Shown: piece after piece, positions 57,511 through 58,321 of the stretch
Layout of the letters: the number at the start of each line of letters is the position of its first letter
Position numbering within the stretch: the first letter of the stretch is position 1
Assembly (NCBI GenBank): GCA_023247275.1
Contig: JAHFGT010000002.1
Span: 25,961 to 89,960, forward strand
Direction of reading: 5' to 3'
From: Candidatus Omnitrophota bacterium
GTDB taxonomy: Bacteria > Omnitrophota > Gorgyraeia > Aquiviventales > Aquiviventaceae
DNA length: 64,000 nt
Made by a program: the position numbers and the translations under genes
Notes under the pieces: generated by a model
What the model was told of the DNA's origin: nothing
The model's input: only the letters and a program-made list of their open reading frames with translations
Databases searched by the model: none

Positions 57511-58321
57511 GTGACACGGGGGTACCTCTGAGAATTCGTTCCACCCATTGGAGGTCTTCTGAAGTATCCACACCGACGGTGTCGTGCGCTGTGTCGAGCA
57601 GCTTGATCCGGTAGCCGTGCTCCAGCGCCCGCAACTGCTCAAGTTGCTCAAGCTGCTCCAGCGGTGTTGGCTCCAGATGAGGAAACTGGAGCAAGAAATG
57701 GCGTTGATAACCATAGATCCCGATGTGCTTGTACCAGACTGGAGACTGGAGACTAGAGACTGGAGGAGATTGGACCGTAGCGGTTGGTGTCCTGGAGGCT
57801 TCAGTTTCTGGTCTGCTGTCTGCGGTCTGCTGTCTCACGAAGGGAATCTGGGCGCGCGAGAAATACAGCGCAAACCCATCACGATCCACGACCACTTTCA
57901 CGACATGAGGACTTGCAGCAAGGTGCGGATCGCACAGCCGCGTTTTCAGCGATGCCATTGGAATCGCCGTATGTTGCTCTAAAAATGTTGCGAGCTGGTC
58001 AATCATCTCTCCACGGATGAGCGGTTCATCGCCCTGCACATTGATGACCACCTTGGCCGCATGCGCCCGGGCCACCTCGGCCACCCGCTCGGTGCCACTG
58101 CGGGCGGACGGATTGGTCATCACGGCCCGCCCGCCGAACCGGCCCACTGCGGTCATGATCCGCTCATCATCAGTGGCAACGAACACCTCCTGCACCCGAG
58201 TCGCTTGCGTGGCCCGCTCATACACATGCTGAATGACCGGTTTGCCATGGAGCATCGCCAACGGTTTGCCTGGAAACCGCACGGCCCCATACCGGGCTGG
58301 GATCACGACGAGCGCACTCAT
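57503..58321 (-). CDS. kdsB: 3-deoxy-manno-octulosonate cytidylyltransferase (CMP-Kdo synthetase)
   Basis: [17 protein letters not shown]-terminus and HIGIYGY. It carries a roughly 20-25 aa low-complexity insertion encoded by repeat 57733-57837. Confidence 0.9.
57733..57837. repeat. Heptamer-array hairpin element embedded in frame in kdsB
   Basis: The left arm is CCAGACT GGAGACT GGAGACT AGAGACT GGAGGAG. A 40-bp spacer follows. The right arm is TGGTCTGC TGTCTGC GGTCTGC TGTCTCA. Confidence 0.8.

Follow-up and report, generated by a model that had tools for sequence, protein, structure and literature searches.

How does the gene for an essential enzyme come to carry, inside its reading frame, tandem 7-nt repeats of a kind that otherwise lies mainly between genes, and is the process that placed them there still at work? 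The locus that raises this question is kdsB, which encodes CMP-Kdo synthetase, in a 64,000-nt stretch of a Candidatus Omnitrophota genome (contig JAHFGT010000002.1) that was analyzed as a whole and is referred to here as the window. The kdsB coding sequence (57503–58321, minus strand, 272 amino acids) is intact, and its frame runs straight through an element made of two heptamer arrays and a spacer. This copy is old, stable, and partly decayed, and it belongs to a class of heptamer arrays that is strongly over-represented in this Omnitrophota lineage, mainly at gene junctions.

The translated element in kdsB

Read along the mRNA (minus strand), the 5′ arm of the element (57810–57836) begins at the AGA codon of the invariant Arg163, consists of ∼3.6 heptamers of the CAGACNG type (∼3.6 copies of GTCTGCN on the plus strand), and encodes RQQTADSRP. 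A non-repetitive spacer of 43 bp (57767–57809, ∼13 residues) separates it from the 3′ arm (57734–57766, ∼12 residues), in which GTCTCYA, or a GGAGACT-type unit on the plus strand, is repeated ∼4.3 times. Tandem Repeats Finder placed the two arms at 57736–57765 (AGACTGG, 4.3 copies, 91% matches) and 57811–57835 (GTCTGCT, 3.6 copies, 88%), and a separate array scan agreed, returning 57734–57766 and 57810–57836 with the 43-bp spacer. A first-pass annotation, made from the sequence alone, had traced extra residues in KdsB to a paired heptamer array read in frame, and on this the sequence, Tandem Repeats Finder, and the translation agree; its count of 36 residues between the conserved segments YFSRAQIPF and YKHIGIYGY needs correction to 35, from F161 to Y197. 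Structure-sequence alignments put the deficit at this loop, relative to the window protein, at 15 residues in H. influenzae and ∼19 in V. cholerae. The identity of the protein rests on matches to 13 solved KdsB structures (best PDB 3oam, E = 7e-55), and the gene is flanked by a pfkB-family kinase gene upstream and pyrG downstream in an order shared with relatives, in which kdsA and a SIS-CBS gene are next in the neighborhood.

Because three independent assemblies carry the identical insert (the rest of the protein differs by one to three residues), the insert is real and stable at the strain level, and an assembly artifact is ruled out. An intein or self-splicing intron was also rejected, given that the insert comprises 35 low-complexity residues, which is below the size of an intein, and that an Rfam search over the whole window returned no family match at threshold. 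The same search result, together with a frame that is kept in 120 of 120 Omnitrophota KdsB homologs, gives no sign that the insert is removed after transcription or translation. The gene also holds three copies of a 9-nt repeat, CTGCTCAAG (57635–57662, encoding 10 residues), whose motif is largely conserved in the homolog consensus; it is thus a native in-frame repeat outside the heptamer element.

Ten period-7 arrays occur in the window, against 0.31 expected in dinucleotide-preserving shuffles (maximum 3), and periods 6, 8, and 9 are represented by one array each. A pattern search located three tandem copies of GAGACNN only at 17620, 17933, and 57735 (the last in kdsB), and three of CAGACNN only in proS and kdsB, with expectations of 0.01–0.02. 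This confirms the earlier observation that the kdsB units match intergenic arrays, here those at 17620 and 17933, and the array in proS, which is identical to the kdsB 5′ arm at 24 of 25 bases and shares with it the peptide QQTADSR. The arm units alone recur: a BLAST search of the kdsB spacer within the window found no second copy beyond chance 12–14-mers.

The element had been described as a hairpin, a term that holds for the pairing of its arms but not for the strength of the structure. With CAGACNN in the 5′ arm and GTCTCNN in the 3′ arm, pairing is possible at ∼5 of 7 positions in each unit, and the hairpin is weak for that reason: as DNA the element folds at −21.9 kcal/mol (z = −2.9), and as RNA it reaches a z of just −1.25, with 21–22 of 200 shuffles folding equally well. 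A perfect-hairpin regulatory stem is thereby ruled out for the window copy. Orthologous kdsB inserts have strong RNA folds (z = −3.3 to −5.7); the weakness of the window copy stems from a change of all its 5′-arm units from GAGAC to CAGAC, for which the 3′ arm shows no compensation.

The age of the insert follows from its alignment with the kdsB locus L081 (L-numbers denote DNA loci of relatives and P-numbers protein homologs), whose product is 72% identical. Both arms align in the same register from the Arg codon, and the spacers are homologous, with a common CCRACCGCTAC core and the peptide PTAT, so the insert dates back to a common ancestor of the two and is not a recent one. The arms and spacer shared with L081, the identity of three strains, and the decayed hairpin together contradict the proposal of an active or recently active insertion as far as the kdsB copy is concerned, and this copy is probably a neutral passenger.

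The C-terminal domain of KdsB serves Kdo binding and dimerization (PMC3149649). The insert lies in this domain, bracketed by the invariant residues R163 and K198/H199. An AlphaFold model renders residues 163–195 as coil with a pLDDT of ∼40, and confidence is low across 137–193 because the alignment held just 26 sequences. Going by this model the loop is probably disordered, and we propose that the extra segment, ∼22–27 residues beyond the shortest loops in relatives, would form a Ser/Pro/Thr/Gln/Arg-rich coil that has no function in itself. The suggestion that such elements are tolerated in surface loops is borne out as regards tolerance, given the 8–49-residue range described below, but for a surface position the model offers only its low-confidence coil.

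Orthologous arrays in kdsB and proS

A metagenome search for KdsB supplied seven close relatives, and a profile search of genome contigs with the KdsB alignment gave, among the matches listed, few Omnitrophota loci, of which L001 is close; the remaining loci listed were used as out-group controls. Across the 120 Omnitrophota KdsB homologs (63–73% identical to the query), the conserved blocks are joined by a loop of between 8 and 49 residues; about half of the proteins have long loops, and the shortest measure 8–13 residues. Loops of at least 22 residues show 27% identity at an offset of 7 vs. 7–8% at other offsets, a periodicity that is the signature of translated heptamers, since seven residues correspond to three heptamers. 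The units themselves differ among relatives, with GAGACNN/GTCTCNN in L081 and L092, GGCTCAA-type units and partial complements in L082, L083, and L088, and a short GGGTCRA pair in L001. Different unit families have occupied the kdsB loop on many occasions. At least two of these occupations had independent origins, because the GAGAC family begins exactly at the invariant Arg163 codon and the GGCTCAA family ∼4 codons downstream. Outside the close Omnitrophota set, an "uncultured bacterium" with a 49% identical KdsB (L011) has paired heptamers, CGAGGTC and GCCCTCA, in the same loop (10487–10571).

From the Arg codon the arrays form an in-register series. L085 has AGACAGG AGACG, or 1.7 units, in an 8-residue loop; L086 has a single arm of four units, three of AGACAGG and one of GGACAGG; and both arms are present in L092, L081, and the window. 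This series of sequences fits growth by slippage from a native Arg-Gln-Glu-Thr seed, with an inverted arm added later. The difference between an empty locus (L087) and a filled one (L088) is a clean 54-nt indel, and in this one pair compared the junction has no target-site duplication beyond the repeat unit.

Loop length follows the repeat content of the surrounding DNA. The flanks of four short-loop kdsB loci, 61 kb in total, contain no period-7 arrays, those of long-loop loci contain 1.2–7.8 per 10 kb, and loop length and flank array load are correlated (Spearman 0.69, p = 0.026, n = 10), which points to a genome-wide process and not to a KdsB-specific function. The first-pass annotation had held that the same insertion, encoded by non-periodic DNA in relatives lacking such repeats, would count against its reading; what we find is that relatives without the repeat families have short loops, and the reading survives this comparison.

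In proS, five perfect copies of CAGCAGA (23132–23170, minus strand; Tandem Repeats Finder 5.0 copies, 100%) encode QQTADSRQQTAE. The ProS segment is just three residues longer than that of E. faecalis ProRS, and the stretch from CGYAANLEAA to VKTPG has 40–41 residues in 90 of 120 Omnitrophota homologs. Its first dozen or so residues are hypervariable and 7-residue periodic (31% identity at offset 7 vs. 7–10% elsewhere). Arrays of ∼5 near-perfect units stand in register in relatives (L169, 10706–10746; L170, 5336–5373; L171, 10710–10748), and the unit differs by lineage, being CAGCAGA in the window and CAGAAGT, CACCKGT, and CAGACCA in three relatives. The array in L169 is the sole period-7 array in 21.7 kb. 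Judging from these alignments, the proS array is orthologous and fixed in length and is not an insertion, so that its earlier classification as an insertion-type repeat element has to be given up.

Traces of contact between arrays are found as well. The peptide PASSLQPPAS (unit CAGCCTC) is common to a KdsB (P0016) and a ProS (P0166) encoded on one contig, CAYJRJ010000001.1 (L082), which suggests exchange or common seeding between arrays, and in L171 CAGACCA arrays are present at three loci. The pattern read from these comparisons is one of concerted evolution inside and between arrays, in which position, register, and proS length are kept and the unit changes in all copies together. Slippage by a single unit shifts the frame in an essential gene, and in proS and kdsB it would be lethal; homogenization must therefore go without length change, for which misaligned or ectopic gene conversion is the usual candidate.

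A third gene, serA, had been assigned to the same process. Compared with M. tuberculosis SerA, the window protein does have ∼24 additional residues around PSTRPAMGGDSLRIIPSERSQSRDDG (33207–33298), but their coding sequence is a nested non-heptamer palindrome with the core CTCGCTCGGGAT/ATCCTGAGCGAG, of which BLAST found no second copy within the window. With no insertion in proS and no heptamers in serA, the claim that three essential genes record one insertion process was overstated.

Heptamer arrays at gene junctions

Array density was determined in 15 Omnitrophota loci (206 kb) and array size in 18 (258 kb, three loci added). Period-7 arrays number 22.8 per 100 kb in the Omnitrophota loci vs. 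1–2 for periods 5, 6, 8, and 9; the period-7 density is 4.1 per 100 kb in 152 loci of other phyla among the matches listed. Sizes peak at 4–5 units (55 of 81 period-7 arrays). The purine-rich unit occupies the 5′ arm in 16 of 17 inverted 7-/8-mer pairs, kdsB included and on both strands, so the purine/G-rich strands converge; in other phyla the figure is 13 of 17. The pairs counted for polarity are those at 533–605, 1293–1365, 17619–17958, 53990–54053, and 57734–57836 of the window and those of L081, L082, L083, L086, L088, and L092. Simple slippage does not explain this convergent polarity.

Seven hairpins of the window lie at junctions of housekeeping genes, several of them 5–16 nt after a stop codon, and the kdsB and proS arrays are the intragenic minority. 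An 8-mer-array hairpin (GGTGNACN ... NGTNCACC, 530–605) starts 14 nt after the stop of a metallo-beta-lactamase-fold gene, and paired heptamer arrays (GTCAGAR ... TCTGAYY, 1293–1365) have divergent genes on either side. A hairpin of GGTGTAC-type units (13979–14045) marks the junction of a prephenate dehydratase and an aminotransferase gene, and a second 8-mer-array hairpin (53983–54053) that of a SIS+CBS-domain gene (KdsD-like) and a gene for a haloacid-dehalogenase-family hydrolase (KdsC-like). Further junction hairpins of tandem 7- or 8-mers are located at 15840–15900, 28380–28449, and 46682–46770.

The two arrays that share the GAGAC unit with kdsB form a split convergent pair. Its left half (GAGACNN, 17619–17646) overlaps the start codon of a class-I tRNA synthetase gene (Pfam tRNA-synt_1b, Trp/Tyr type), and its right half (GTCTCYG, 17932–17958), 285 bp from its partner, lies 5 nt 3′ of the infB stop. 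The enclosed 285 bp at the infB/tRNA-synt_1b gene junction (17647–17931) contain more hairpins, e.g., TACATGCGCCC...GGGCGCATGTA, have no Rfam match, and are unrelated to the interior of a split pair in L083 (10808–11155). In the kdsB-pyrG gap of L083, a nested palindrome of ∼420 bp (10777–11194) has GTGACAA/TTGTCAC heptamer arms outermost and long inverted repeats, CTTAGAGCACC.AACATCATGAG / CTCATGATGTTAGGTGCTCTTAG, in its interior.

Hairpins of the same unit in the window have unrelated loops. Two 8-mer-array hairpins 7.3 kb apart (46677–46708 and 53978–54009, the second being the hairpin at the KdsD-like/KdsC-like gene junction) have the same first 32 bases (GATTCGTGTACGGGTGAACAGGTGTACGGGTG) and then unrelated loops, an identity that, from the sequences, looks like copying or conversion between loci. 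In relatives, the 5′ arm of a junction array (GTCAGAR) forms the C-terminal tail of KdsB or KdsA (L082, 10792–10828; L081, 2470–2505; L088, 2049–2083 and 4722–4809). The frame at 4722–4809 of L088 terminates inside the TGA-containing 3′ arm (TCTGAYY), and repeats of this class thus write protein C-termini. Paired heptamer arrays are also present near kdsB in Nitrospira, Acidobacteria, and Deltaproteobacteria loci (L053, L008, L030, and others). Apart from the arrays, the window has a large tandem duplication at 48243–49150 (a 483-bp unit, 1.9 copies, 94% identity), apparently in or beside an unannotated open reading frame (ORF; 47267–48361) with no Pfam match.

Kinship, origin, and significance of the arrays

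In many bacteria, no long microsatellites are as over-represented as heptameric repeats, whose origin and role are unexplained (PMC4692102). The best-described heptameric simple sequence repeats (SSRs) are GGGAATC in Xanthomonas and GGGGA(T/C)T in Nostoc (Rehm et al., 2015, PMC4692102). Xanthomonas has 70–75 convergent inverted pairs per genome, intragenic arrays make up 7–11% in Xanthomonas and about one-third in Nostoc, and array length and sequence differ even among close species (PMC4692102). As that paper cites Mrazek et al. (2007), heptanucleotide repeats are over-represented and a length of 7 nt was proposed to favor polymerase slippage. The Omnitrophota arrays resemble these SSRs in having 7-nt tandem units with only period 7 over-represented and ∼4 units preferred, in the convergence of G/purine-rich strands as inverted pairs (PMC4692102), and in their placement, mostly between co-directional ORFs and tens of bases from a stop, with an intragenic minority. 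Because unit length, period-7 excess, array size, polarity, and placement all match, the kdsB element belongs to a known kind of repeat.

It differs from the described representatives in several respects. Where Xanthomonas and Nostoc have one unit, the Omnitrophota, a different phylum, have many families per genome (GAGACNN, CAGACNN, GTCAGAA, GGCTCAA, GGTGTAC(G), and others). Unlike GGGNATC, these units have no G-tract and no quadruplex potential, GGAGACT and GTCTGCN having at most two consecutive G, so that quadruplex formation is argued against as the cause of the four-unit preference; the G-tract unit marks the Xanthomonas/Nostoc subfamily and not heptameric SSRs generally. For Xanthomonas and Nostoc there is no description of in-frame translation in essential genes, of orthologous arrays that persist as their units turn over, or of units common to several genes.

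The cyanobacterial STRR heptamers and the TAACTGA direct repeats of Beggiatoaceae (MacGregor, 2015, PMC4679880) are likewise tandem heptamers, mainly intergenic and near gene ends. They are direct arrays of one unit, with one inverted case in 170 repeat sets of the "Maribeggiatoa" genome (PMC4679880), unlike the Omnitrophota loci, where inverted pairs are common (17 in the loci analyzed) and arrays lie deep in ORFs. REP, BIME, and REPIN elements (PMC3116915, PMC3733652), which RAYT transposases mobilize, are likewise short hairpin-forming repeats that lie between genes where operons meet, in many cases as inverted pairs; REPs have a fixed 20–40-bp palindrome, a conserved GTAG/CGTC head, and a cognate transposase, unlike the tandem 7-/8-mer arms of variable unit seen here. 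No conserved REP tetranucleotide head was seen by eye in the window arms, and a Pfam scan of 17 window proteins found no RAYT (KdsB and ProS were recognized by their matches to solved structures). A literature search for Omnitrophota with heptamer or tandem repeats found nothing relevant.

The most likely account of the kdsB element, which we hold to be somewhat better than an even bet, has arrays arise locally by slippage and template switching and then become homogenized through conversion, with frame and loop tolerance as filters. A short native seed, e.g., AGACAGGAGAC (Arg-Gln-Glu-Thr), would have been amplified by replication slippage, and the second arm would have been produced through intrastrand template switching. 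Misaligned gene conversion within an array and ectopic conversion between arrays would keep the units alike. Selection would act as a filter, admitting only units free of stops in all three frames through which a 7-mer cycles, a total length divisible by three, and a tolerant, probably disordered loop. That stop codons inside units limit the place and orientation of coding overlap has been discussed for the Beggiatoaceae repeats (PMC4679880).

Several points weigh against this account. The slippage, template-switch, and conversion events are inferred, none having been directly observed, and homogenization at constant length in proS and kdsB is an assumption. Loops with one or two units (L085, L087) may equally be deletion remnants of longer arrays, and the neighbor-joining tree of the 120 KdsB proteins is star-like and poorly resolved, which leaves the number of independent origins uncertain. 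The structural model of KdsB is of low confidence over 137–193. The 32 identical bases in 8-mer hairpins 7.3 kb apart resemble copying more than independent growth, and convergent polarity and a size of 4–5 units are not predicted by plain slippage. Three features are in fact left unexplained by plain slippage: uniform polarity, uniform size, and perfect, fixed-length, lineage-specific arrays in essential genes.

One rival is a mobile palindromic element. Rickettsia palindromic elements (RPE; Ogata et al., 2000) are reported to be inserted in frame within protein-coding genes. RPE copies have a full-length consensus of roughly 100–150 bp and are not tandem heptamer arrays. The Omnitrophota arrays are like RPE in that a palindrome of a dispersed family is translated in housekeeping genes, adding a peptide at a tolerant site and leaving the gene intact, as the kdsB element does; they are unlike RPE in having just 7-nt units in common, with a unique spacer, and orthologous arrays that stay in register and change in concert. 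A MITE-, REP-, or RPE-like copy that a transposase-type activity inserted into kdsB in frame would account for the recurrence of unit types at several loci and, within one genome, in two essential genes, for the clean 54-nt presence/absence difference between L087 and L088, for the 32 bases shared by two hairpins, and for a loop occupancy that follows the array load of the genome. We nevertheless regard it as rather improbable. The kdsB spacer is unique, with no second full-length copy in 64 kb, hairpins of the same unit have unrelated loops, and the L087/L088 junction lacks a target-site duplication. Arrays begin at a conserved codon, in register across orthologs, and exist in one-arm and 1.7-unit forms; the proS array is length-neutral; and no transposase was found among the 19 window proteins checked, which are part of the proteins of the window.

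Selection on the nucleic acid itself is an unlikely candidate. The arrays would then be hairpins, or series of 7-nt sites for a single-strand-binding (e.g., cold-shock) protein, acting in mRNA processing, stability, pausing, or chromosome organization, with the peptide as a by-product. The strong RNA folds of the orthologous kdsB inserts would fit such a role, as would the clustering of arrays at operon junctions just 3′ of stop codons, their uniform polarity and size, and the near-perfect proS array kept even by L169, whose 21.7 kb contain no further period-7 array; PMC4679880 cites work in which B. subtilis CspB reportedly binds heptamer repeats with one protein on each heptamer. Against it, the kdsB hairpin of the window has decayed uncompensated (z = −1.25), many close relatives have no kdsB insert, intergenic array positions are not conserved between the window and the syntenic L169 and L171, two linker bases per unit are unpaired in every ortholog, and no Rfam family matches.

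What slippage leaves unexplained could also be supplied by a dedicated, lineage-specific activity that writes or maintains arrays, an idea we consider doubtful, with perhaps an outside chance of being right. In one form, template-directed addition of purine-rich heptamers at both 3′ ends of a break would yield head-to-head arms and a filler spacer; in another, a protein binding in heptamer register would set the size of 4–5 units. If true, this activity would cover convergent polarity and uniform size without quadruplex potential, genome-specific units common to unrelated genes, and the way in which arrays inside essential genes such as proS and kdsB remain near-perfect, in register, and of fixed length even as their units are replaced.

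Protein-level adaptation, in which the loop would have been selected for a role in KdsB such as a flexible linker or an interaction site, is very improbable. A frame kept in 120 of 120 homologs, about half of them long-looped, and the position of the insert between the invariant R163 and K198/H199 would be in keeping with it; yet loop sequence and length are hypervariable, composition is set by the DNA unit (hence the 7-residue periodicity), close relatives manage without the insert, its presence tracks the genome-wide repeat load and not KdsB phylogeny, and the loop is predicted to be disordered. A phase-variation switch that toggles KdsB, and so lipopolysaccharide synthesis, by gain or loss of one unit can hardly be credited, for although seven is not a multiple of three, so that by inference alone one-unit slippage shifts the frame, the insert is identical in three strains, the arrays are short (∼4 units) and imperfect, and an array of the same kind is found in proS, for which an off state would be of no use.

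The favored account of slippage, template switching, and conversion places the kdsB element in a heptamer-pair class that is new here in three ways: it occurs in a new phylum, has many unit types, and is translated in essential genes. For the annotation and evolution of proteins, this means that low-complexity loops with a 7-residue period, when they occur in housekeeping enzymes, can be by-products of the dynamics of DNA repeats. The kdsB copy of the window matters mainly since related genomes keep arrays in essential genes and change them in step. Arrays in essential, alignable genes are a natural experiment that permits a base-by-base comparison of orthologous arrays, and because position, register, and proS length are fixed while units turn over and are shared, rates of homogenization within and between arrays become measurable.

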